DNA from: Thermoplasmatota archaeon
GTDB taxonomy: Archaea > Thermoplasmatota > E2 > JACPAO01 > JAHFTW01
Length of the DNA stretch: 58,557 bases
Direction: 5' to 3'
Assembly: GCA_049617695.1 (NCBI GenBank)
Contig: JBMZJT010000001.1
Coordinates: 1-58,557, forward strand
How positions within the stretch are numbered: the first letter of the stretch is position 1; every line of letters begins with the position of its first letter. The notes under the pieces were generated by a model. It did no database searches, had not been told where the DNA came from, and saw only the letters and a list, made by a program, of their open reading frames with translations. This document shows, piece by piece, positions 1,717 to 58,443 of the stretch. A program made the position numbers and the translations under genes.

Positions 1717-3879
1717 TCAGGCGATGCCGTCGCGGACCTTCACGGCCACGCCGTTCTCGAAGTCGAGCATCTCCTCGGCGTTCATCAGGGCCTGGCCCAC
1801 GGCGACCAGGTCTCCGCTGCCATCGACAATCAGGCACTCGTCGCCGGGGCGCAGCCCCTCATCGCAGGCGACAATGAACTTGGCAAACGCCGACTTGCCC
1901 TCGCGATTGAATGCCACGCTGTCATCGTGGACCGTCACGCGCATCGGAATGCCGGCAGCGTGCAGAATCTTCGCGCCCGCCGGTTTCAGGGTAAACAGGG
2001 CGTCCTGGGCGCGCAGGCTCAAGATGTGCTCCCCGTTGAGGTGCACCGTACGCATCTTGCCGGTCGCCTTGGAGCGTTCGCATTTCAGATTGCCATCCGT
2101 CAAGGCGTGGCCGGCGCCGGCGCCAAACTGCCAATCCGCGGTGCGCAGGACTTGCATGAGATCGCGGTCGAAACCGCCCTTGGGGCCCGGAGGTCCCGGG
2201 ATGCCAGGCATGAAGTCATGGGCTTCCAGGAAGGCGTCCTTGGTGGTGCCCACCCAGCCCATGTGGGCTTGATCGAGATCGCCCAGGGCCGGCAGGACGG
2301 ACTGGGCAAAGGGATACGCCTCGTCCAGTCCCAGGGGCACGGGGCCAAGGCTGCTGATGACGACGTGATCTTGTTCCTCGTCCAAGGGGAGCTTGCGCGC
2401 ACGTTCGTCGCCGCCGTCCTTGCGGGCCAAGGCAGGGCCAAACGGCTTGTTGGCGGGTTCCTTGTGCATGGCGACTTCGCGCTTCTCCTCGCCTTCCTCG
2501 GCATAGGGCGTCGAAACCTGGGCTTCGACGGGCTCGCCAATGGGCGTGAAGCGCTCCTGCATGCGGGTCTTGATGCGGTGGAACACGGGGCGGTTGTGGG
2601 TCAAGCCACCGGTGTAGCGCATGGCCTTGCCTCCGCTCAGGGGCTCGCGTTGTTCGAGCCACGCCTGGTATTCGGGGGCACGCAGGCGGCGGGTCGCCGC
2701 AGCCAGCAACGGGTGGCAGGCGGCGCGTTGTTCGACCAATTCCCACAAGACGCCGTCGCGAATCGCGGTGCGGATGCGGCGTAGGTCGGTGAAGCAGACG
2801 TCCAAGTTGTGCAGCGCTAAGGCCCGCTCTGCCGCGAATCCGGGGCTTTCAGCCTCCTTTTGGCGAATCCGCGCCTGGGCAGATGCATAGGTCCGGTCGG
2901 CATCGTCGGGAACGCCGGCGCGGCGGCGCTTCTGTTTGAGTGCCTTGCTCAATTCCTTCGGCGTCCATCCATCCAGCATCGGCGCGTGGACTGGCCATTC
3001 GTCCAAGTCAGCCACGTGCAGGGTGCCGCCTTCCCACATCATGCGGCCGTCCTTGGCGTACTTGGCGTAGCTGCTGCTGTCAAACAAGTCGCAGCCAAGC
3101 GCCGTCGCCAGGGGGAACACGAGGGGGTGCCCGGCGCCGAACAAGTGTACAGGGCGATCCTTGCGCAGGTGCTGCTGCGCGTTGAGGATGATGTCCACCA
3201 ATTCGGGGTACATCTGCTGCTCCATCACGGGCACGACGCCGCCGATGGTGGTGTAACCCGTGTCCAGTTCCCGGTGGGCGCCGGCGCAGGCTTGGCGCAG
3301 GTCCATGTGGAGGCCACCTTGGACGGTGGCATTGATGTAGGGCGTGTTGGCGCCACGTCCGCGACCGTCTGGCTCGGCGCGCCAGGCGGTGCGTTGCTTG
3401 CTGGCAGCCGCCGTGCGCTCCAGAGTCGTCGCCACGGCTTGCTCGGCTTCCTCCCGGGTCATGTCCGGGGTGACGAACAAGTCGAGGCAGGTCGCCACAT
3501 CGACGCCCATGTCCGCTTGGAACTGCACGATTTCCTCGGGGCCGACTTCGACGTCGCCGTAGACGTACATCTGGAACGTGCCGGAGTCCGTCATCAAGGC
3601 GCCGTCCCAGTCGACCAGGTCATGCACCCCGTTCTCCAGTGCATGTTTGCGCAGGTGGTCGTGTTTGTGGATGACGTAGCTGTTGGTGATGATCATCTCG
3701 GCACCAAACCGCTGGGCCATCTCCTTGGGGGGTACCAAATCGATGTTCGGATTGACCACCGGCATCATCGTCGGCGTCGTCACGGCTCCGTGTGGCGTCG
3801 TGAAGCGGCCGATGCGGCCCGCTGCGGCGCGGCTGATGATGTCGAAGGTCATGGGGTCGCCGACTCGGAGGTCCTTCAT
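1717..3879 (-). CDS. tgtA: archaeosine tRNA-guanine transglycosylase (ArcTGT) with C-terminal PUA-like domain
   Basis: 720-aa ORF. The N-terminus (GRIGRFTTPHGAVTTPTMMPVVNP ... ITNSY ... LMTDSGTFQ) matches the TGT TIM-barrel signature. The C-terminal region looks PUA-like (GLRPGDECLIVDGSGDLVAVGQALM). The start may instead be the internal M10 (MTFDII) at 3852. Confidence 0.88.
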   Translation of the reverse strand: MKDLRVGDPMTFDIISRAAAGRIGRFTTPHGAVTTPTMMPVVNPNIDLVPPKEMAQRFGAEMIITNSYVIHKHDHLRKHALENGVHDLVDWDGALMTDSGTFQMYVYGDVEVGPEEIVQFQADMGVDVATCLDLFVTPDMTREEAEQAVATTLERTAAASKQRTAWRAEPDGRGRGANTPYINATVQGGLHMDLRQACAGAHRELDTGYTTIGGVVPVMEQQMYPELVDIILNAQQHLRKDRPVHLFGAGHPLVFPLATALGCDLFDSSSYAKYAKDGRMMWEGGTLHVADLDEWPVHAPMLDGWTPKELSKALKQKRRRAGVPDDADRTYASAQARIRQKEAESPGFAAERALALHNLDVCFTDLRRIRTAIRDGVLWELVEQRAACHPLLAAATRRLRAPEYQAWLEQREPLSGGKAMRYTGGLTHNRPVFHRIKTRMQERFTPIGEPVEAQVSTPYAEEGEEKREVAMHKEPANKPFGPALARKDGGDERARKLPLDEEQDHVVISSLGPVPLGLDEAYPFAQSVLPALGDLDQAHMGWVGTTKDAFLEAHDFMPGIPGPPGPKGGFDRDLMQVLRTADWQFGAGAGHALTDGNLKCERSKATGKMRTVHLNGEHILSLRAQDALFTLKPAGAKILHAAGIPMRVTVHDDSVAFNREGKSAFAKFIVACDEGLRPGDECLIVDGSGDLVAVGQALMNAEEMLDFENGVAVKVRDGIA

Positions 3880-12670: not shown

Positions 12671-15600
12671 ATGCGTGGACAAATCATTCCTCTAACGATC
12701 GTGGCAACCTTCGTGCTTGGCACGTTGGCGGCCGCCGCCCCGGCGACCGACAGCCAGATCACTGCCGCCGAGAACGCCCTTGACAACGTCGGTCCCCTCG
12801 GGGAAGACGTGCTTCAGGGCGACTGGGAAGAAAAACAGGAACGCCACCGCTGGTACTACCGCGACGGCGATGTCCTCAACTACGCGCGCGAAGGCCGCAA
12901 CGGCAACTGCTGCGGCTCCTGGTCGTACCTGTACGACCCCATCCAAGACCTGCCCGGCCTGGGCATCACCAGCGGCCCGGTCACCTTTGACTGGGGCACC
13001 ATCACCAACGACTTCGAGCTGGACCGCATCGTCTCGTCCGCGCACATCACGACCGGTGGCAGCACCGATGTCTATGTTGAACTCCTCGACGGCGACACGG
13101 TCATTCCTGGCGCCACCGTTATCCACCAATTCGATGCGCTCGTGTCCAACCAATACGACACGCCCGTCATCAGCCTCCTGACCAACGGCCCCGAATACGT
13201 CTCCCTCGTCGAATTCGACCCGCCAGTCGTCATTGCCGAAGGCACCGACCTCAAGGTCCGCGTGTCTGCCCCGGACCCCGTGCCGACCGACACCCAGCCG
13301 ACCGTCTTCAACTACGGCGCCGGCAGCATCGACAGCTACATTGAGCTCCATGGCAACATGGCGCGCGTCAACGCCTGGACCACGAACAACGACGGCGTCA
13401 CAACCGACTCCTTCCCTCTTGCCCAAGACGCGCCCAGTGAAGATCGCCACATCCGCACCTGGGTGGCGCACGTCAGCGCATTGGGCAGCGACCACACGCC
13501 GGGCCGCACGCCCCTCGACCCCGCCCAGCACGGCGTCCAAGTCCGCATTCTGGACAAGGATGGCAACGACCGCACTGGCATCACCGACATCCGTGTGAAC
13601 ACCCGGATCATCAAGGCCGCCGCCCCCGGCATGAACCTCGTCGAATTCGACATCCAATACCCGGACAACCTGCTCGATGAAGCCGGCAACCCGTACGACG
13701 GTCGCCTCATCATCGAGTTGTACGGTCAAAACCAGCAATGGGTCCACCGCATCCCGGTTGCCATCGCTGGCGCCCAAGTGGAGCTGGACCTGGCTGAATT
13801 TGAAGATGCGACCAAGACCATCCTCACGGGCGAGGACACCACGTTCCTCTTCGAGTTGCGCAATGGCGGCATCGTTCCCGATGACGTCATCATCACCGGC
13901 GATGAACTCAATGGCTGGAGCCTCGACGTGTTGGTGGATTCCATCAACTTGTCTCCTGGCGAAAGCCGCGTGTTCCCCATTACGATTCAGCCTCCGGCTA
14001 GCGGCCTGAGTGGCGACTTCCAAAGCTTTGACATCAAGGCCATCAGCAGCCGGACGGGCCAAACCGACACCGAGACGGTCACCGTCATCCTGACGGACAT
14101 TGAAACGAACGGCGTCGATTTGTTGGCCAGTCAATTGGAGACCGTCCAAATTTCGGCCGGTCAGACCAAGAGCATTGGCTTGACGATCAAGAACCTCGGC
14201 AACAGCGCTGAGGACTTCAGCCTCAGCACCGCTGGCGCGCCCCTTGGCTGGAAGGCCAAGCTGAGTCCGTCCAGTACGGAACTGGGTGCCAAGAGCCAGA
14301 GCGGTACCCTGCTGACTGTCACGGCGCCCGAAGATGCCCAACAGGGTGACAAATTCGCCTTGACCGTCACCGTGCGCAGCATCGTGGACAACACCATCAA
14401 GGACACCATCATCGTGCCCTACGAAGTGTTCTTCCGCGAGGACTTCACCCTTGAAGTGAGCCACGAAGCCATTGCCGGTGAATTCCAGAACTACATCACC
14501 ACCTTGGCAGACATGCAGGCGTTCTCGGACACCAACAGTCTGGTCCCTGCGCCCGGCATTCACACCCTGCGCGACGAAGGAACCGATGGCGACACGGCTG
14601 ATTACGCCAACACGGCCACGGTTCCCTGCTCGCCCCTGACCGTCGCAGGCGTTCGCCCCTGCCTCGATGCCAACCCTGGCTCCAACTGGGATGGCCGTGG
14701 CGACCCGGACATTGACTACGACCAATCCACACTGTTCCGCCTGGTCCTGACCAACCATGGCAACCGCGAGGACACCGTGCGCTTGACGCCCAACTGGGTC
14801 TTCGACGGCGCTTGGGAATCTCGCGACGTGGCCGAGTGCGAAGAGCGCGATGGCGGCAACACCGATGGTGTCCCTGATGGCTGGCGCTTCCGCTACTGGG
14901 AGGCCGGCACGCCCCTGCCGCCTGCCCTCGATGGCCCCTACGGCATGACCGATTCCAACAGCCACGACGAGAACCCCGCCGGCGGTCTTGGCAACCGCCG
15001 CCTGTCTGCAGACATCCGTACGGTGGACTTGGAAGCGGGCGAAGAGAAAATCATCTGGGTGGAGCTTGGCTGGCAAATGGTCAAGCGCATGGACGACTCG
15101 GACAACCAGAACACGGACAGCCTTGCAAATTCCGTGTGCACAGAAGGCACGGTCCAATCCGGTGCCGGCACCCGCATGGGTGGTGGCGCCTCCGACGGCG
15201 GTGACTACACGGACGCCACCAAGAACGCCGTCGTCAAGTTCACCGCCGAAAGCCTGCGCGACTTGACCAAGGTGCAAGACCTCTACGTCCGCGCCCACTA
15301 CGAACCCGATGGGTCCCAGGTGCGCGACGGCAGCCAACGCTACTCTGGCCAACACAACCAAGTCTACTTGGGTCTGGACACGGCGGACTACACCAACCCG
15401 GAACAGATTGGCGACCTCAATGTGCACCTCACCAAGGGCACCGAAGAGGAACGCACGGCGGACTTCCACCTGCGCGTCGTCAATGCCGGCAACGAACAGG
15501 ACACCATCCGCGTCGAGATTCCGATTGACACGGACGCCTACGAGTACTTCATCTCGGAAGCGGCCGCCGAACCCGGCGTCGTGACGGCAAACCGCGTGGA

Positions 15601-50184: not shown

Positions 50185-50316
50185 AAACGAAGCGTTGGCA
50201 AGGCGCGGCCTGGTTCGCCTTCACGTCCCTAACGGGCATTGGCGGCGCATTTGTCGCCCCGACGGCCTGCTAGGCCGCTGGGTCCACTCGGCAGTGCCTC
50301 GCTCGCCCCCACTTCC

Positions 50317-51348
50317 CTAACGGGAATTGGCGGCGTACGTATCGAACAGGTACTTGTCCATGGAGCGAAGACCCAACACCATGTCGAGCTCCTGCGGCGT
50401 CAGGAACGGCTTGTTGTAGCGTCCCTGGTCATCGATGGGCACGCGGGGGCATGCCACGCCGACGAAGGCATCCAAGTGGCGGAAGTAGAGCAAGTCGCCG
50501 GGACTGATTTGCTTGTTCTGAATCAAGTAGCCCCGCTTGCCGTGGTCGCGCAGCTTCTTGAGGATCCGCTTGGCCGATTCCATGCGCATTTGGCCGCCCT
50601 TGGTCGAAATGACGATGCCAAAAGTCTCCGCTTCCTGGGCATTGGCAATGGCGGCGTAGCGCTGCTTGAGGATCTTGTGCTTCGGCTCGTCGAAGGTGTG
50701 GATTTCGCCGTCGTAGGGATTGGCGCCGACGATGCGCTTCTCCGTTTCCAGCGCCAATGCGAGGGGGTGGAAGTCGCCGCTGCCGACGAACAAGAACTCG
50801 TCCACGTCCATCAGTTTGGTCGCGGCCATGACATTGCAGCCAAGGAGTTGTCCCTGCAGCTTGGTGCGCTTGTCACCGAAGCCCAACACGGGCTCGAAGC
50901 CTTCCTCGCGCAGGATGTCGCAGGCCTCCTCCATCTTGTGGGTGTGCTGCGCCGTGGTGCACACACCGATGCGCTTGCCGGTCAAGTGTTCCTTGGCGGC
51001 CTTGCGAACAACGGGTTCGATGGTGTGCGTGGACCATGCTTGGATGTAGTAGACGTGGACGCCGCCCAGTTCCGGGACGCTGGGCATGTCACTGTGGCCA
51101 AAGTGCAAAAGCACCTTGACGTCGAGCTTGGCCATTTCGTCGTCGCACAGGTCGCAGGCGCCGTAGCACGGATCGGCCGAGATGACGACGGGGACCCCGA
51201 GTTCGGCTTCCACGATGTCGGCAATCTCCGTGCCGTGGTCGCGCAGGCCATCCGGGAACTGCACGCCGATGCTCTCCAACTCCGGGTGGTCTTTGCGCAC
51301 TTGGGGCAGGACCTCCTCGAACGGAATGAGGTAGTTGTAGAGCTCCAT
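50317..51348 (-). CDS. dph2: 2-(3-amino-3-carboxypropyl)histidine synthase (diphthamide synthesis Dph2)
   Basis: 343 aa. IGVQFPDGL, ADPCYGACDL, LLHFGHS and ISPGDLLYF blocks are typical of archaeal Dph2. Confidence 0.8.
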   Translation of the reverse strand: MELYNYLIPFEEVLPQVRKDHPELESIGVQFPDGLRDHGTEIADIVEAELGVPVVISADPCYGACDLCDDEMAKLDVKVLLHFGHSDMPSVPELGGVHVYYIQAWSTHTIEPVVRKAAKEHLTGKRIGVCTTAQHTHKMEEACDILREEGFEPVLGFGDKRTKLQGQLLGCNVMAATKLMDVDEFLFVGSGDFHPLALALETEKRIVGANPYDGEIHTFDEPKHKILKQRYAAIANAQEAETFGIVISTKGGQMRMESAKRILKKLRDHGKRGYLIQNKQISPGDLLYFRHLDAFVGVACPRVPIDDQGRYNKPFLTPQELDMVLGLRSMDKYLFDTYAANSR

Positions 51349-52685: not shown

Positions 52686-53365
52686 CAGGCACCTCCGGAG
52701 CGCACGATGCGGCCATCCTTGACGACGATGATGCGCTCGCCGTAGGCGGCCATGTCGCGGTCGTGGGTCACTTGGACGATGGTTTTGCCTTGATTGTGAA
52801 GGTCCGCGAACAATTCCATGATTTCCTGGGTCGTGCGGCTGTCCAGGTTGCCGGTGGGTTCATCGGCCAAGAGAATGGGTGGCTGCAAGGCCAAGGCGCG
52901 GGCGATGGCGACGCGTTGCTTCTGGCCGCCGCTGAGTTCGCTCGGCTTGTTGCCCATGCGGTCGCCCAGGCCCACGCTACGCAGGGCTTGCTGGGCCATT
53001 TCCTTGCGCCGGCCGTACGGTGTGCCGCCCAGCGCAAGCGGCAGCATGACATTCTGGAGGGCGGAGGTGCGGGGAATCAAGTGGAATGCTTGGAAGATGA
53101 AGCCCATGTGCTTGCGCCGGGCCAAGGTGCGTTGCTTGTCCGTCAGGCGGCTGGCGACTTGGCCCATGACGCGGATGCCGCCACTTGTGGGTGCATCGAG
53201 CAAGCCAAGCAAGTGCATCAACGTCGATTTGCCGCTGCCGCTGGGGCCCATGATGCTGACGAATTGGCCTTGCGGAATGTCGAGGTTGACGCCGCGCAGG
53301 GCGTGGACTTCGTTGCCCGGCTTGCCGTAGGTCTTGCTCAACCGCCGTGCTTGGATGGCGTGCAC
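52685..53365 (-). CDS. ABC transporter ATP-binding protein (MacB/LolD type)
   Basis: Walker A GPSGSGKST, signature LSGGQKQRVAIAR, Walker B ILLADEPT. The stop overlaps the permease start by 1 nt. Confidence 0.9.
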   Translation of the reverse strand: MHAIQARRLSKTYGKPGNEVHALRGVNLDIPQGQFVSIMGPSGSGKSTLMHLLGLLDAPTSGGIRVMGQVASRLTDKQRTLARRKHMGFIFQAFHLIPRTSALQNVMLPLALGGTPYGRRKEMAQQALRSVGLGDRMGNKPSELSGGQKQRVAIARALALQPPILLADEPTGNLDSRTTQEIMELFADLHNQGKTIVQVTHDRDMAAYGERIIVVKDGRIVRSGGA

Positions 53366-53396
53366 GGCCAGTCAATCCATCCTTTGGGCTAAAACG

Positions 53397-53945
53397 TCAA
53401 GGGTCCACGTGGACGCGCTGGTCGACGTGGATGCGATGCATGGCTTGGATCGGCAATCCCGTGTCATCGCGAATGGCTTGGGCGCCTGTGCCTTTTTCCA
53501 CGATGGCCAAGCAACCGATCACGGTGGCGCCGCGTTCGTCCAGGGCCGCCATGAGGCCACGTAGGGTGCCGCCGGTGCTGATCAGATCATCAACGATGAG
53601 CACCTTGTCATCTGGACGAATGTCGTTGAGGTAGATGCAGCTCTCGCCGTAACCGGTTTCACAGTACGCAATCGTCTCGCCCGGTAGGCCGTATTGCCGT
53701 TTGCGCGCAATCACCATGGGCTTTCCAGACAGCAAGCTGAGGGCGGTCGCCACGGGAATCGCCATGGCCTCGGGCGCCAACAACAAGGTCGCCTGGTCGA
53801 CGCCGGGCTGTTGCATGGCCCAGGCTGCCCATTCACGCAGTTCTTCCACGTCCATGCGGGGCACGCCATCTGTCAAGGGATGGATGATGTATGGATATCC
53901 GGACTTGTCGAGAATGGGTGCGGCGGCGAGGCTATCCTTGATCAT
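53397..53945 (-). CDS. purine phosphoribosyltransferase (archaeal Hpt-like)
   Basis: The ATG at 53945 (MIKDSL) gives 182 aa. PRPP-binding motif VLIVDDLISTGGT. Confidence 0.75.
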   Translation of the reverse strand: MIKDSLAAAPILDKSGYPYIIHPLTDGVPRMDVEELREWAAWAMQQPGVDQATLLLAPEAMAIPVATALSLLSGKPMVIARKRQYGLPGETIAYCETGYGESCIYLNDIRPDDKVLIVDDLISTGGTLRGLMAALDERGATVIGCLAIVEKGTGAQAIRDDTGLPIQAMHRIHVDQRVHVDP

Positions 53946-55155
53946 AGGACTCCAGGAATCGGTCGATGATGTCGTCGGTAACGTGCGGGCCGACAACGAT
54001 GCGTAGGGCCTCAAATCGGGGCACGATGTTGAGTCGGAAGCCCGCGGACATGAGCCTGGCATGGCGGCTCTTGACGTCGCCGTGATGGAACGTGACGACG
54101 TTCAACTCAGGCTCGGCAACGAGGCTCGCGCCGCGTGCCTTGAGGCCTTGTGCCAGCCGCTTGGCAGATGCGATGCATCGGTGGGCATTGGATTCGTAGC
54201 CGTCCAGGCCAGTGGCGCGGTGCGCGGCCCACGTGGCGGCGACGGCGGCGCCGGGCCGGGTGCCCATGAGCGTGCTTTGGCTGTCGGTGCTAACGTAGCT
54301 CGTCTCGACCGCCGTGGCCTGCCAAATGCTCGCGTCGGCGACGACCAACGCACCGGCCGGAACGGGAGCCATGCCCATTTTGTGGGGGTCCAGCGCGACA
54401 CTTGTCACGCCAGGCACGCGCAAATCCCAGGGTATCTCCAGGAATGGGAGAACGTAGCCGCCAAAGGCGCCGTCCACGTGGCAGTGGGCGCCGACGCGTT
54501 GGGCTGCGGCTGCAATGGCCGGGATGTCATCGACCAAGCCGAGTTCCGTGCTGCCGGCGATGGCCACGACCAGAGCCGTGTCATCGCTGATGGCTGCCGC
54601 CATGGCGTCGGGGTCGCTGCGCAAGTCGTCGCCGGCGGGCACGCGGATCAACTCCATGCCCAGCATGCGGGTGGCCTTCTCGAAACTGAAGTGCGCGGCG
54701 CCACTGATGACGACTTGGTTGCGGCCCGTAGTTTCCCTGGCCAGGTAGCAGGCTTGCAGGTTGGCTTCCGTGCCACCTGTGAGGAACCGCGCATGCTCGG
54801 CGCCGGGCGCGCTGACAAGTTGTGCCAGGTCCGCTAGGACGTCGCGTTCGAGTTGGGCCGTGCCTGGGAAATGATCTGGATCGCCGAGGTTCGTCGGCAG
54901 GAACCATCCGTAGACCTCTTGGGCCAACGCATGGGGCTCCGTGCACATCGAGCCCAGAATTTCGCCTTGGGCAAAGGAGAGGTCCTTGCTGCGGGCGTCG
55001 TGCAAGGCGGTGCGCACCGCCTCGGGCGGCCACGGCTGGCGGTCCACGAAGTCTCCATGGCGCCTCGGATAAAAGGGCAGGCCTGTAGATTCACCAATCT
55101 CTGAACCAAGGCCTTCTCCCCAAAGCGGTCTCTTGCCCGCCATGGCCGGAAGCAT
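53932..55155 (-). CDS. mfnA: PLP-dependent L-tyrosine/L-aspartate decarboxylase
   Basis: GSMCTEPH, TGGTEANL, HVDGAFGG and the PLP-lysine context DPHKMG are present. The start is at 55155 or 55143. The longer ORF to 55407 is rejected. Confidence 0.8.
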   Translation of the reverse strand: MLPAMAGKRPLWGEGLGSEIGESTGLPFYPRRHGDFVDRQPWPPEAVRTALHDARSKDLSFAQGEILGSMCTEPHALAQEVYGWFLPTNLGDPDHFPGTAQLERDVLADLAQLVSAPGAEHARFLTGGTEANLQACYLARETTGRNQVVISGAAHFSFEKATRMLGMELIRVPAGDDLRSDPDAMAAAISDDTALVVAIAGSTELGLVDDIPAIAAAAQRVGAHCHVDGAFGGYVLPFLEIPWDLRVPGVTSVALDPHKMGMAPVPAGALVVADASIWQATAVETSYVSTDSQSTLMGTRPGAAVAATWAAHRATGLDGYESNAHRCIASAKRLAQGLKARGASLVAEPELNVVTFHHGDVKSRHARLMSAGFRLNIVPRFEALRIVVGPHVTDDIIDRFLESYDQG

Positions 55156-55417
55156 CCTCGCACAGCTCACGATGGCAGGCGTGATTGAACGATCGGGACG
55201 CGGTCGCGCCGTCTTGCGCGTGACACCACGATTCCTGGCCCACGTCGAACGCACCGCAGGCCTGCGCCACATCACAGGCGATGAAGCGGTTCGTGCTGCA
55301 TTGGCGTCCTGGGCCGATCCGACGCCGCGCGGCGCCACTGCCACGGTTGCAGCCATCCTGGAAGGGCAACAATCCGTCGTGACGTTCGGCACGGCGACGC
55401 GCTGCATTGCTGCCTAA
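55142..55417 (+). CDS. small hypothetical protein (91 aa)
   Basis: The ORF is divergent from mfnA (MAGSILAQLTMAGVIERSGRGRAVLRVTPRFL...). Codon bias is compatible with coding, but I recognise no family. Confidence 0.3.
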   Translation: MAGSILAQLTMAGVIERSGRGRAVLRVTPRFLAHVERTAGLRHITGDEAVRAALASWADPTPRGATATVAAILEGQQSVVTFGTATRCIAA

Positions 55418-55436
55418 ACGTGCCCGAATGGCTCTG

Positions 55437-55530
55437 CCGCTCAACCCCGCACAAATCCTTGGTGAACCGATGCTCCGCTGAACGAAACAAAGGCAATACG
55501 CCTGCGAAGGCGCCGTTGGCAGGATGTGAA
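55437..55530 (-). repeat. distal 94-nt copy of the tRNA-Asn T-loop-to-3'-end plus 74-nt downstream flank
   Basis: 91 of 94 positions are identical to 55571..55664 at an offset of 134 nt. The mismatches are at 55464, 55480 and 55526. Confidence 0.9.
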
Positions 55531-55553
55531 TGCAAACGCCCACGTTTGCATTC
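55528..55553. repeat. perfect 11-bp-stem hairpin GAATGCAAACG-CCCA-CGTTTGCATTC (conserved module, copy 1)
   Basis: Read directly from the sequence. The same module occurs at 57332..57357 when both are read in the orientation of their tRNA. Confidence 0.9.
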
Positions 55554-55570
55554 GGAGCGAGGTATTCGCT

Positions 55571-55664
55571 CCGCTCAACCCCGCACAAATCCTTGGTCAA
55601 CCGATGCTCCGCTAAACGAAACAAAGGCAATACGCCTGCGAAGGCGCCGTTGGCAGGATTTGAA
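55571..55664 (-). repeat. proximal 94-nt copy (includes the genuine 3' 20 nt of tRNA-Asn)
   Basis: See 55437..55530. Positions 55645..55664 belong to the intact tRNA. Confidence 0.9.
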
Positions 55665-55716
55665 CCTGCGACCCTCGGATTAACAGTCCGATGCTCCACC
55701 ACTAAGCTACAACGGC
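55645..55716 (-). tRNA. tRNA-Asn (anticodon GUU)
   Basis: Reverse-complement cloverleaf. Acceptor GCCGUUG/CAACGGC, D arm GCUU/GAGC, anticodon stem UCGGA/UCCGA with loop CUGUUAA, T arm GCAGG-UUCAAAU-CCUGC, discriminator G. Confidence 0.9.
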
Positions 55717-55816
55717 AGAGCAGGCGTATCACGTGCCTCAGGGGCACAATCGCCGCCGACTTGGGTCTCCATCATAACCGTTTCTAACCAGCCGGCGCCG
55801 AATCAAGGCCAAACGG

Positions 55817-55824
55817 TTTCAAAT
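55817..55824 (+). promoter_or_regulatory. TATA-like box (TTTCAAAT) about 26 nt upstream of the ATG at 55846; suggests a leaderless transporter mRNA
   Basis: The call is based on position and A/T richness only. Confidence 0.3.
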
Positions 55825-55845
55825 CCCGCCTCCCGTCGTCAGCCG

Positions 55846-57171
55846 ATGGCAGGTCGGGGAGCGTTCAACAGTCGCATCGGTTTCATCATGGCAGCCGTAG
55901 GCAGCGCCGTGGGGCTGGGCAACCTCTGGCGGTTCCCGCAATTGGTCAGTGAAAGTGGCGGCGCGGCGTTTGTGCTGCTCTATCTCATCCTACTGTTTGT
56001 CATCGGCTTGCCGGCTTTGCTTGCCGAATTGAGCATCGGTCGCAAGCGCGGCGTCAATGCCATCCAAGCCTTCAGCGTTGTCAAGGGACGCAACTGGGGT
56101 TGGATTGGCATCATCTACATCTTCACCGCCGTCCTGCTGCTCTCCTATTACTCCGTGGTCGCTGGGCATGCCTTGCGCTACCTCGCGGAAAGCTTCACAG
56201 CGCCCTATTTCGATGCGCCCGGCGACTACTACGCAGGCATCGCAAGCGGCGGGCCGGCCATCATCTACCACGCCTTGTTCATGCTGATCACCATCGGCAT
56301 CCTCGTTCGCGGCGTCGGCCCCGGCATCGAAAAGGCGAACCTCGTCATGATGCCGTTCCTGTTCCTGTCGGTCGTCGCCATTGCGATTTACGGCCTGACC
56401 CTGGACAGCCCCGGCTTCGAGGGCTTCAAATTCTACACCGAGCCCGATCTCAGCGCCCTGACCGCCGGTGGATTCAGTGGCACGGCTGCGCTCCTGGGCG
56501 ACGCCGCGGGCCAGACGTTTTTCAGCATCGGCCTCGGGTTGGGTACCATGCTGACGTACGCCAGCTACATCGACCGCAAGAGCGACCTGCAAAGCACCGG
56601 CATGACCATCGGCTTTGCCGACACCGGTGTCGCCGTCATCGCCGGCCTCATGGTCTTCCCGCTGCTCTTTGGACTCGGCCTGGGCGGTCTTGCCGAGGAA
56701 GGCAACGGTCTCTTCGTCGCACTCCCCGCCGCATTTGCTGAAATCGGCGGCACCCTCGGCGGCGTCTTTGCGGGCGGCTTCTTCCTCCTGCTCGTTTTTG
56801 CTGCTCTGAGCAGCGCCTTGAGCCTCCTGGAAGTGCCCGTGAGCTACATCATCGACCGGACCAACTGGGGCCGCCCCCGTGCCGTCTTGCTGATGGGCCT
56901 CAGTGTCTACGTTTTGGGCCTCCCGGCAGCCCTGTGGGGCGATTACATGGACTTCGCGGATTCCTTGGTCGGCCCGTTGCTCCTGCTCGGTGGCTTCCTG
57001 CTCGCCATTTACGTGGGCTGGCTCGATCGCAGCATCCTCGATGAAATGCGCATCGGCGCCAAGCGCGACTGGGGCAAGATGTGGGCGAGCATCATCCGCT
57101 ACCCGCTGCCTGTGGTGCTGGGAAGCCTGTTCATTTTCTCCGTGATTGGGTTCTTCCGCAACTTATTCTGA
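55846..57171 (+). CDS. sodium-dependent transporter, neurotransmitter:sodium symporter (SNF/NSS) family
   Basis: RIGFIMAAVGSAVGLGNLWRFPQLVSESGGAAFVLLYLILLFVIGLPALLAELSIGR is the NSS TM1-TM2 signature. The protein has about 11-12 TM helices. Confidence 0.9.
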   Translation: MAGRGAFNSRIGFIMAAVGSAVGLGNLWRFPQLVSESGGAAFVLLYLILLFVIGLPALLAELSIGRKRGVNAIQAFSVVKGRNWGWIGIIYIFTAVLLLSYYSVVAGHALRYLAESFTAPYFDAPGDYYAGIASGGPAIIYHALFMLITIGILVRGVGPGIEKANLVMMPFLFLSVVAIAIYGLTLDSPGFEGFKFYTEPDLSALTAGGFSGTAALLGDAAGQTFFSIGLGLGTMLTYASYIDRKSDLQSTGMTIGFADTGVAVIAGLMVFPLLFGLGLGGLAEEGNGLFVALPAAFAEIGGTLGGVFAGGFFLLLVFAALSSALSLLEVPVSYIIDRTNWGRPRAVLLMGLSVYVLGLPAALWGDYMDFADSLVGPLLLLGGFLLAIYVGWLDRSILDEMRIGAKRDWGKMWASIIRYPLPVVLGSLFIFSVIGFFRNLF

Positions 57172-57195
57172 GCCGGGGCAAGCCCCGATTCATAC

Positions 57196-57278
57196 GCGGG
57201 GGTGGCGGAGTTGGCCAAACGCGCCCGACTTAAGATCGGGTCCTACGTGGTTCGCAGGTTCGAGTCCTGCCCCCCGCA
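57196..57278 (+). tRNA. tRNA-Leu (anticodon UAA), class II with long variable arm
   Basis: Acceptor GCGGGGG/CCCCCGC, anticodon stem CCCGA/UCGGG with loop CUUAAGA, a variable arm, T arm GCAGG-UUCGAGU-CCUGC, discriminator A. Confidence 0.9.
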
Positions 57279-57309
57279 TTCTGTTGTTTTTGGGGGTTGT
57301 GCGTGGTCG
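57262..57309 (+). repeat. proximal 48-nt copy: last 17 nt of tRNA-Leu plus 31-nt downstream flank
   Basis: 42 of 48 positions are identical to 57359..57406 at an offset of 97 nt. All six differences are C/T transitions. Confidence 0.85.
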
Positions 57310-57331
57310 AGCGTGGCGAGTGCCGCGCTCC

Positions 57332-57357
57332 GAATGCAAACGTGGGCGTTTGCGTTC
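57332..57357. repeat. hairpin GAATGCAAACG-TGGG-CGTTTGCGTTC (conserved module, copy 2)
   Basis: Read directly from the sequence. It has one G-U wobble relative to the perfect copy at 55528..55553. Confidence 0.9.
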
Positions 57358-57358
57358 T

Positions 57359-57406
57359 GAGTCCTGCCCCCCGCATTTTGCTGCTTTCGGGGGTTGTGTG
57401 CGGTCG
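57359..57406 (+). repeat. distal 48-nt copy of the tRNA-Leu 3' end plus flank
   Basis: See 57262..57309. It ends 2 nt before the stop codon of the convergent ABC-2 permease gene. Confidence 0.85.
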
Positions 57407-57408
57407 TA

Positions 57409-58443
57409 CTAGAGGCGATCCATCTTGAGGCTGCGCGTCGTCCAAGCAATGGCCAGTGTCAGGGCGCCCGCGGCTGCGGCGGCGAGGCCTATGACGACCC
57501 GCCAAGTTGTGCCATCAGCGACGCCTTGGGCGAGCCGCGCGATGAGATTCAATGGATCTTGGGGCAGCGCGGCACTGGCCAGTGCAAGGCTCAGCAGCAA
57601 GACGGCATAGGCGGCCTGGGTCAGCGATTCGTCGCGAACCACGCTGGCGACCCAGGTGCCGAGGCTTGTCAGCAGGATGCCGAGGATGGTGGCCAATGCA
57701 AGCACTGGACTCGGGTGCGGCGTGGCAAACCCATTGATCCAGAAGAGGCCCAGCCACAAGATGACCTGGATGGGCACGAGAAGTACAGGAATGGCCAGTT
57801 TGCCGATGACAATCCGCCAGGCGCCAAGGGGTGCGGCGCGCAGGAGAAGCAGGCTGCGGCTCTTGGATTCCTGGCTCAATGCATCTCCGGCGATGGCGCC
57901 GCTTAGGAAAACCGGCGTGATGACCAGAAGCGGCAGGAGTGTTGCATGCACGAATGTGTACGGCCGATCGGGTCGAATGTCTCGATCCAAGTGTTGCAAC
58001 TCATGATCGAGCCGGTCTTGCCGCTCCGTTTGGAGGCGTTGCTCGTAGTCCAGGAGCAAGTCACGAAACTGGGTGACGAGCAAGGTCGCCTGGATTTCGC
58101 CGTCGGCGACGACGAGCGTGATGTCTCTGGCGTCTTCGCCCCGTTCCTCGACGATGGCGTCGATGCTGCCAGCTTGGAATGCTTGCAAGGCGGCCGATCC
58201 ATTGAGCCGGACCACATCGAGGTTCGGGGCACGTTCGAGGTGCAAGTCGAATCCGCCGGGGCCGACGTAGGCGATGTCGGCGTCGGGTTGGCCGCCCACG
58301 CTGCCCGGGTCATGCAGGGCGGTGAGGCCCGTGAGCAAGAGCGCACTAAAGCCCGCAAGGACGGCTTGCACCAGGAACGCCGTGATGAGGCTCTTTTCCC
58401 GCAGGACGTCCCGCAATTCCTTGCGCAGGAGCGCGCCAATCAT
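57409..58443 (-). CDS. ABC-2 type transporter permease (NatB-like)
   Basis: 344 aa. N-terminus LLRKELRDVLREKSLITAFLV, a long extracytoplasmic loop, then five hydrophobic helices. The ATG overlaps the upstream gene stop (ATGA). Confidence 0.6.
   Translation of the reverse strand: MIGALLRKELRDVLREKSLITAFLVQAVLAGFSALLLTGLTALHDPGSVGGQPDADIAYVGPGGFDLHLERAPNLDVVRLNGSAALQAFQAGSIDAIVEERGEDARDITLVVADGEIQATLLVTQFRDLLLDYEQRLQTERQDRLDHELQHLDRDIRPDRPYTFVHATLLPLLVITPVFLSGAIAGDALSQESKSRSLLLLRAAPLGAWRIVIGKLAIPVLLVPIQVILWLGLFWINGFATPHPSPVLALATILGILLTSLGTWVASVVRDESLTQAAYAVLLLSLALASAALPQDPLNLIARLAQGVADGTTWRVVIGLAAAAAGALTLAIAWTTRSLKMDRL

Follow-up and report, generated by a model that had tools for sequence, protein, structure and literature searches.

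A window of 58,557 nucleotides (nt) from a Thermoplasmatota archaeon (assembly GCA_049617695.1, contig JBMZJT010000001.1, positions 1 to 58,557 of the forward strand) carries behind its tRNA-Asn gene a displaced second copy of that gene's 3' end, set off from the first by a short, hairpin-rich sequence. We find that this sequence belongs to a dispersed family of structured, non-coding modules, here called module E, which stands in a fixed copy-module-copy layout and a fixed orientation, with one joint always at the foot of its second hairpin, behind 11 tRNA genes and at three protein-gene ends of the same genome. Our reading, which we hold with moderate confidence, is that the tRNA-Asn repeat is one copy of this cassette and marks a homology-assisted replacement of the gene's end. 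The family as a whole points to an undescribed kind of gene-end remodelling that proceeds with no visible integrase or transposase. A full-text search of the literature found no description of such cassettes, the 1.8-kb recombinase-bearing insert of Sugahara 2012 (PMC3293823) being a different thing. The window is part of a metagenome-assembled genome (MAG) of 1.67 Mb in 72 contigs, referred to below as G000, that is 85% complete, and the searches for enzymes described here apply to that assembly.

The elements of the tRNA-Asn locus all lie on the minus strand. The intact tRNA-Asn(GTT) gene was called by ARAGORN at 55643-55716 (Rfam RF00005 at 55645-55716, 76.7 bits), and a repeat finder returns two direct copies of 94 nt, at 55571-55664 and 55437-55530, identical at 91 of 94 positions (97%) with a spacing of 134 nt. 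The proximal copy, delimited by repeat finder and pairwise alignment, consists of the tRNA from the T-loop to the 3' end (its last 20-22 nt) together with 72-74 nt of T-rich trailer. The distal copy, delimited in the same way and by variants in independently assembled contigs, holds a displaced partial tRNA 3' end with its own copy of the trailer and begins with ATTCACATCC; it reads TTCACATCC against TTCAAATCC, a single mismatch in the T-loop, and ARAGORN calls no tRNA there. The unique spacer between the copies (55531-55570; fold and pattern search) contains the 3' part of a first hairpin, H1, the linker CC-GAAT and a second hairpin, H2. A small hairpin, GGAGCGA-ATACC-TCGCTCC at 55554-55572, folds as part of H1, and H2 (55532-55549) has the stem GCAAACG/CGTTTGC and a TGGG loop on the tRNA strand. 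Read on that strand, the spacer forms an 11-bp hairpin, GAATGCAAACG/TGGG/CGTTTGCATTC, H2 being a continuous helix of up to 11 bp with no bulges. The distal copy starts right at the H2 stem foot. The module in full (H1, CC-GAAT and H2) occupies 55528-55584 (covariance model R1, 77.1 bits, E=6e-13); nhmmer and the covariance model agree on its start at 55584, and the final ~14 nt of the proximal copy (GCGGGGTTGAGCGG) align also with the beginning of the module.

This anatomy reproduces what an earlier note, made from the letters of the window, had described: the repeat and its offset, a proximal copy holding the tRNA 3' segment from the T-loop on, a distal copy with one T-loop mismatch that is not part of a foldable tRNA, and a 40-nt spacer with a small hairpin and an 11-bp one. 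The note was also right to call the hairpin a conserved element, as the family copies bear out, and to call the case unusual in a layout that resembles attL/attR. Chance is ruled out as the source of the repeat, since the 22-mer of the tRNA 3' end occurs twice in the window against 0 occurrences expected. Nor is the repeat a simple tandem one, given that Tandem Repeats Finder reports none and that the layout is copy-module-copy with no second spacer instead of unit-unit. An inverted copy of the tRNA 3' end within the trailer was considered and is not significant (p=0.07). A search of 55300-57500 against Rfam 15 at E<=1 matched only two tRNAs besides sub-threshold noise. Archaeal tRNA introns have a bulge-helix-bulge (BHB) motif at each border and are spliced from the transcript; the helix of H2 is free of bulges, and the intron mode of ARAGORN gave implausible calls only. 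As a separate observation, the T-loop of tRNA-Asn here (55652-55660) reads TTCAAAT and that of the displaced copy TTCACAT; the tRNA-Asn T-loop is TTCGAGT in 8 of the 9 relative loci inspected (L011-L019), the sister species included.

Module E is ~60 nt long and consists of H1 (GCGTGG...GCCGCGC, with a nested hairpin), CC-GAAT and H2 (a 7-bp stem with a TGGG loop). Profile and covariance-model searches give 14-16 copies in the genome. The H2 hairpin was found at nine places, each directly behind a tRNA gene and in its orientation, and each followed by a copy of that tRNA from the T-loop to the 3' end. Altogether the module follows the genes for tRNA-Asn, Leu-TAA, Val-GAC, Pro-TGG, Ser-GGA, Val-CAC, Glu-CTC, Arg-GCG, Gly-GCC, Met and Gln-TTG, the last with an array of two units; stacked arrays occur at the Gln, Met (at a contig end) and Val-GAC loci. 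Three further copies sit at protein genes, namely at the stop of an SdhB-like gene (contig C23), at the stop of a dihydrolipoamide-dehydrogenase-like gene (C21) and at the 5' end of a gene of the metallo-beta-lactamase (MBL) fold (C41). No E copy in this genome lacks the flanking duplication.

A second locus of the same architecture lies in the window itself, on the plus strand. There tRNA-Leu(TAA) (57196-57278, ARAGORN) ends in a proximal copy at 57258-57309 that runs from the T-loop GTTC to the 3' end and on through the trailer into the first ~9 nt of E (alignment, 46/53). It is followed by E at 57301-57357 (nhmmer E=2.9e-18; covariance model, 81.6 bits), whose H2 hairpin (57332-57357) lies 54 nt behind the tRNA, and by a distal copy at 57354-57406 (alignment) that begins GTTC-T-GAGTCC at the H2 stem foot and stops 3 nt short of the stop codon of a convergent ABC-2 permease gene.

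An assembly artefact or a collapsed mixture of strains might be suspected in a MAG of 72 contigs whose contig ends often fall in these repeats, and the earlier note had raised the possibility of an artefact. We therefore turned to independently assembled Logan contigs, found via the neighbouring proteins. One from SRR27204715 is 100% identical to window positions 55630-57322, and another from SRR32540794, present in two samples, is 100% identical to 53234-55510 and bears the variants specific to the distal copy beside the neighbouring open reading frame (ORF). Both end within a 46-nt stretch common to the two copies, where a k=31 graph must break if two copies exist. At tRNA-Leu, contigs of SRR27204715 and SRR32540796 extend from the ABC-2 gene across the second copy and into the hairpin, so that the joint between hairpin and second copy is crossed in at least two runs. 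With three positions distinguishing the two tRNA-Asn copies, and assemblies of several runs giving both flanks with copy-specific variants and breaking only in shared k-mers, an artefact is very unlikely for the tRNA-Asn repeat, and we give next to no credence to artefact or strain collapse as an account of it.

Where our analysis departs from the earlier note is in its reading of the duplication as the footprint of an integrase-mediated insertion. As expected of an integrative element, a tRNA 3' segment (the last 22 nt of tRNA-Asn) forms part of a flanking direct repeat. No integrase lies within or beside the repeat, however, where only 40 nt separate the copies, and in place of one or a few cognate tRNAs the same 40-60-nt module is found at 11 tRNA genes and three protein-gene ends, so that one tRNA-specific integrase is no explanation. 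The genome also provides an example of a true integrase footprint for comparison. Its single match to PF00589 is a 424-amino-acid tyrosine integrase on another contig, in a separate classical element (C34:3743-12866) of ~9 kb and of lower GC content (0.54-0.60 vs 0.63), bounded by tRNA-Pro(CGG) at 12793-12866 and an exact 24-nt T-loop-to-3'-end copy at 3743-3766, with the integrase gene adjoining the distal repeat. In contrast to the E loci, the repeat there is confined to the tRNA and the trailers on the two sides differ, which matches published archaeal att sites (PMC8371274). An island specific for tRNA-Asn that integrated and then lost all but ~40 nt would account for a repeat whose start is in the T-loop and which takes in the tRNA 3' end, and archaeal att sites can extend past the tRNA (PMC8371274). 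Such a history would, however, require the same 40-60 nt to survive deletion at no fewer than 14 loci (>=14) with identical end points. With no integrase remnant present and with a positive control that looks so different (24-nt repeat, 9 kb of lower-GC DNA, integrase gene), we judge an integrase scar highly improbable.

The joints between module and copies are informative about how the arrangement may have formed. In all ten tRNA loci tested by alignment the second copy begins 0-6 nt past the H2 stem, and in eight of them it opens with GTTC, corresponding to G53-C56 of the T-loop (tRNA-Asn has ATTC, Gly-GCC has GTTG). At the protein loci, Val-GAC and Arg-GCG the joint lies directly at the 7-bp stem and GTTC is absent. 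The one or two bases that come after GTTC in the second copy differ from the resident tRNA, and the variants recur: GTTC-T-G at Leu, Val-CAC and Gln, TTCAC at Asn, Pro and Glu, GTTC(C)G at Ser and Met, and GTTGG at Gly-GCC. From these recurrent non-resident bases the module seems to carry a T-loop-like end of its own and to switch to the resident sequence inside the loop. The similarity between the copies at Val-CAC and Gly-GCC ends sharply at the tRNA end with E left pristine, an edge that fits an incoming end bringing a trailer of its own. By contrast, the copies at Asn, Ser, Glu and Met are 93-100% identical, trailers included, as a donor of the same lineage, a recent event or gene conversion would each produce, and tRNA-Asn alone cannot discriminate among the three.

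Some of these features would also be expected if E, with a tRNA 3' end and trailer, formed a miniature integrative element of ~100-130 nt moved in trans by a tyrosine recombinase that targets T-loops, site-specific excision and integration, with the tRNA T-arm and a core resembling a T-loop at the H2 foot as partners, leaving repeats like attL/attR with no integrase of their own. The breakpoints fall in loops of the tRNA, namely in the T-loop where a 3' end is copied and in the D-loop for the 5' copies described below, and tyrosine recombinases cross over in tRNA loops (PMC8371274). The module-type variants beside H2 (GTTC-T-G three times, TTCAC three times) are what a hybrid att site would show, and an active-looking integrase, whose own att starts GAGTTCAAATC, is present in the genome. 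That integrase, the sole one found, nevertheless resides in its own 9-kb element, and the proposal requires a single integrase family to work on at least 11 tRNAs as well as on protein sites lacking a T-loop (C23, C41, C21), across duplicated segments of ~20-199 nt. Moreover, a circle carrying one tRNA's end cannot seed another tRNA. We regard a recombinase acting in trans as improbable.

Conservation within the family indicates that the hairpins of E are under selection. Across 14 E copies, compensatory changes occur at 7 of 17 predicted pairs, in both hairpins. The 24-nt CCGAAT-H2 core, CCGAATGCAAACGTGGGCGTTTGC, shows no difference in the eight loci tested (0/192 nt) and recurs in the Gln array, against 33 differences in ~408 positions between the flanking copy pairs. 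Had the copies been born identical and then drifted, ~8 changes would be expected in the cores, a rough figure that gene conversion between copies could distort. Beyond the species, the H2 core was found in none of 40 relatives searched, a same-genus relative included, and the H2 pattern gave only chance matches in genome, metagenome and viral collections, with no sign there of an autonomous partner element. A structure model does, however, find one strong E copy in a genome of another genus (G003), in copy-module-copy arrangement behind tRNA-Ser(GGA), that retains GAAT, the TGGG loop and GTTC and has one compensated pair change. H1 recurs identically (31/31) behind a protein gene in a further relative (G006), with variant forms in G006 itself and in G014. 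Parts of the module are therefore older than this species, the burst of copies being species-specific. In the sister species (G001) the sites at Asn, Leu-TAA, Gln-TTG and Arg-GCG are empty, and the duplicated tRNA-Asn flank is not kept in relatives, so the earlier note's other reservation, that the flank might be a conserved functional RNA, is not borne out. At Arg-GCG the downstream flank (TTCCAGTGG...) is conserved between the two species; the state in our genome is therefore that of the sister species plus one module and one extra copy. The sister species bears different modules of its own at Ser-GGA and Glu-CTC, and a relative assembled in 10 contigs (G004) has end copies at 10 of its 32 tRNAs, two-unit arrays included.

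In G006 (L135, C3 ~212924) the last 66 codons (199 nt) of an acyl-CoA-dehydrogenase-like gene are duplicated around an H1 module, and in G014 (L119, C260 ~1762) 22 codons (71 nt) are duplicated around an H1-type hairpin. Eight codons differ in the first case and seven in the second, all of them synonymously; an end copy of cysS in our own genome shows three synonymous differences over 11 codons. The 15:0 synonymous pattern in the two relatives is incompatible with drift in place, because a dead copy would gain mostly changes of the non-synonymous type. Each copy must therefore have evolved as a functional gene end in a lineage separate from the other's, and recombination brought one of them in. 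Judged from their sequences, the copies around the H1-sharing modules of related genera are thus diverged alleles.

These data bear directly on a further alternative, in which E would be a resident cellular cis-element under selection (for example a 3'-end, terminator-like or protein-binding one) and the duplications the product of slippage or template switching between the T-loop GTTC and the GTTC at the H2 foot, later trimmed. Such a role would suit the covariation and cross-genus conservation of H2, the pairing of GAAT with the GTTC behind the stem into an 11-bp helix, the existence of full tandem units and the near-identity of many copies through their trailers. It is harder to reconcile with the absence of any locus that has E and no second copy, by which arrival and duplication look coupled, and with a layout of copy-module-copy where simple slippage predicts two modules. 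Nor can the 15:0 pattern in relatives come from duplication in place followed by drift, and the failure to find the H2 core in the same-genus relative or the other 39 searched argues against a housekeeping role. We consider a resident element unlikely.

Transposition has to be weighed as well. A non-autonomous transposon, such as a MITE (miniature inverted-repeat transposable element), a repetitive extragenic palindromic (REP) sequence or an element like the palindrome-associated transposable elements (PATEs), could give long and variable target-site duplications if a hairpin-recognising enzyme, for example an HUH nuclease, used GAAT as a guide to a GTTC target. The many near-identical copies in one genome, with the H2 core in none of the 40 relatives, would fit, as would hairpins under selection. 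The GTTC at the joint does pair with the GAAT 5' of the stem, extending H2 to the 11-bp helix, and GAAT is complementary to the joint GTTC or ATTC in 9 of 14 copies. Yet GAAT stays the same where the joint reads CTGC, TTGC, GGCC or CGCT, and since it does not co-vary with the joint, we rejected GAAT:GTTC pairing as a general targeting rule. The assembly has no match to a Y1 (HUH) transposase or RAYT (PF01797, with positive controls), to TnpB (PF07282), to Cas1 (PF01867) or to a reverse transcriptase. The ends of E, GCGTGG... and ...CGTTTGC(GTTC), are not related by inversion, as those of a MITE would be. A duplicated segment flanks every E copy, at variance with the insertion of REP and IS200/IS605 elements, which leaves no flank duplication; to our knowledge, known HUH elements make no target duplication. 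The duplications (~20-94 nt) are too long and variable for the 14-15-bp target duplication, at the 3' end of a tRNA or other gene, that goes with Cas1 in casposons, the left end of the insert is not fixed, and orientation is constant relative to the duplicated segment. A transposon of this kind appears quite improbable to us.

We thus return to gene-end replacement as the favoured account. A short piece of DNA with a gene 3' end, its trailer and the hairpin module would become attached on the upstream side of the resident 3' end; homology with the gene would hold it there, and the other joint would form exactly at the 3' foot of H2. For a tRNA gene this joint would come to lie in the T-loop, at G53-TTC-56 or immediately past it. 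The conserved GTTC(R)AATC there offers 4-9 nt of homology, which would explain the bias towards tRNAs. The gene would stay intact because reading continues into the proximal copy, the old end and trailer would be displaced downstream as a fossil, and repeated events would pile up into tandem arrays. Either of two routes would yield the layout: out-of-register re-invasion from a break or DNA end at the hairpin, or recombination of the Campbell type involving a small cassette. The event at tRNA-Asn presumably took the same course, with the proximal copy and module as the newcomer, and we infer that joining is assisted by homology or microhomology and does not involve a tRNA-specific integrase or a classical transposase.

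Several points weigh against this account. Neither a donor nor an intermediate has been seen, and the near-identity of the copies at Asn, Ser, Glu and Met fits duplication in place or gene conversion equally well. The H1-side border is variable in alignments, the repeat taking in 0-31 nt of H1, which a cassette with fixed ends does not predict, and one module behind 11 tRNAs must somehow switch partners. The synonymous-only evidence comes mainly from protein genes of relatives and not from tRNA-Asn. At a completeness of 85%, the MAG could lack a gene for the enzyme, and H2 could be conserved across genera for a role in the cell and not for mobility. More tentatively still, and as a proposal that we think may well prove wrong, E cassettes could be a new gene-less class of mobile or recombinogenic element in archaea, in which the hairpin would direct a break or joint at its 3' foot and the cassette would spread by homology-guided copying into gene termini, with a preference for the universally conserved tRNA T-loop, each event regenerating the end and leaving a displaced copy.

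The E loci are part of a wider pattern of short-range duplication in this genome. A genome-wide scan found 63 direct repeats of at least 20 nt spaced 30-300 nt apart, and 15 of the 63 touch tRNA ends (12 at the 3' end, 3 at the 5' end), against a share of only ~0.2% of the DNA for tRNA genes. End copies occur at 15 of the 40 tRNAs, some of them involving other hairpin modules. Two candidate determinants of occupancy were set aside: the GTTCAAATC type of T-loop, found in 10 of 15 occupied and 9 of 25 unoccupied tRNAs, differs only weakly between the groups, and a preference for convergent gene pairs is not apparent, the loci being split about half and half. Several other short-range repeats sit on the stops of coding sequences (CDSs). 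The third case in the window, identified by the repeat scan and by reading the sequence, is of this kind: at 50226-50335 on the minus strand, the last codons and stop of the CDS at 50317-51348 (GCCGCCAATTCCCGTTAGGGA) are repeated 88 nt downstream. Its spacer has a CGGCCT-AGC-AGGCCG hairpin and a TGCCGAG motif, and the copy encodes an end of ...AANAR and stop against ...AANSR and stop.

Partial copies of 5' ends lie 77-136 nt upstream of the intact genes for tRNA-Lys(TTT), tRNA-Arg(TCG) and tRNA-Met (C67:95-306, C3:10517-10723 and C48:151-350). Those of Lys and Arg break in the D-loop and adjoin a shared module, CCGA(G)ACGGC...GGTCCGCTCG..TTCGC.CGCTGG. The rule common to the E loci and to these 5' copies is that a hairpin adjoins the broken end of the partial copy. 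A second module family consists of an inverted copy of the tRNA's own 3' end, TTTGCC(C)GAGC with hairpins, and then a direct copy; it is found in our genome at C33:3722-3898 (tRNA-Gly-TCC) and downstream of C4:16547-16629 (tRNA-Leu-GAG), and in G004 at L072, L073, L074 and L094, with two-unit arrays in the latter genome. Pairing between the inverted and the direct copy could give a long stem. Beside the tRNA-Asn locus, a minus-strand ORF of 491 amino acids (53932-55417) is a pyridoxal-phosphate (PLP)-dependent decarboxylase only from about residue 185 on. Its N-terminal ~100 codons overlap a plus-strand ORF of 91-94 amino acids (55142-55417), and its true start probably lies near 55090; a short convergent ORF like that one appears, in the raw sequence, to follow tRNA-Asn in relatives as well.

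Comparison with known systems helps to place the E loci. They share with the attL/attR sites of tRNA-integrating elements (tyrosine integrases; SSV-, pNOB8- and pTN3-type; PMC8371274) an intact, regenerated tRNA followed downstream by a partial copy that begins in the T-loop; both include copies of 5' halves, as in the pTN3 type, and in both the gene stays functional. They differ in having 24-62 nt of hairpin DNA and no integrase between the copies, in serving at least 11 tRNAs as well as protein-gene ends, and in a repeat of no fixed length that takes in up to 72 nt of trailer.

Prophage e14 and phage 21 integrate in the 3' end of icd in Escherichia coli, where the phage brings a replacement gene end and leaves a displaced pseudo-end. 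As with the 15:0 pattern around the relatives' modules, the working and displaced ends of icd differ mostly synonymously and the gene is intact, but the agent is a prophage of at least 20 kb with an integrase against a non-coding module of ~60 nt here. In the displacement arrays of rhs and contact-dependent inhibition (CDI) genes, with their orphan toxin ends, 3' ends are likewise replaced in succession and older ones stacked downstream; what is replaced there, however, is functional toxin domains with immunity genes, whereas E brings an end of the same sequence, encodes nothing new and has tRNAs as its main targets. REPs and bacterial interspersed mosaic elements (BIMEs), small palindromes and MITEs resemble E as short, GC-rich, intergenic hairpin repeats of many copies that are lineage-specific and show compensatory stem changes. 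Unlike E, REPs have no duplication of a neighbouring gene end and are tied to RAYT (Y1) genes, which were not found in G000, and MITEs have terminal inverted repeats with a short fixed target duplication. Homology-facilitated illegitimate recombination and microhomology-mediated break-induced replication (MMBIR) share with E a homology-anchored side, another joint at a few identical bases, duplications of variable extent and no need for a dedicated enzyme. Such events are sporadic, though, while E always has its joint at one conserved hairpin's foot, and the inserted module forms a dispersed family under selection.

When an intact tRNA gene has a partial copy next to it, the copy is routinely taken for an integrase footprint and serves to set the borders of genomic islands. 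In the genome studied here more than one third of the tRNA genes carry such copies, and the agent behind them is much smaller and carries no recombinase gene itself. If replacement of gene ends is indeed directed by a hairpin, this would be a warning against calling islands from tRNA fragments alone, and would offer a testable route to interrupted, duplicated or split tRNA genes in archaea and to the spread of small structured modules with no transposase. Should E cassettes also prove to be a gene-less mobile class, they would represent a widespread, integrase-free route to partial copies, insertions and possibly introns or splits in archaeal tRNA genes.

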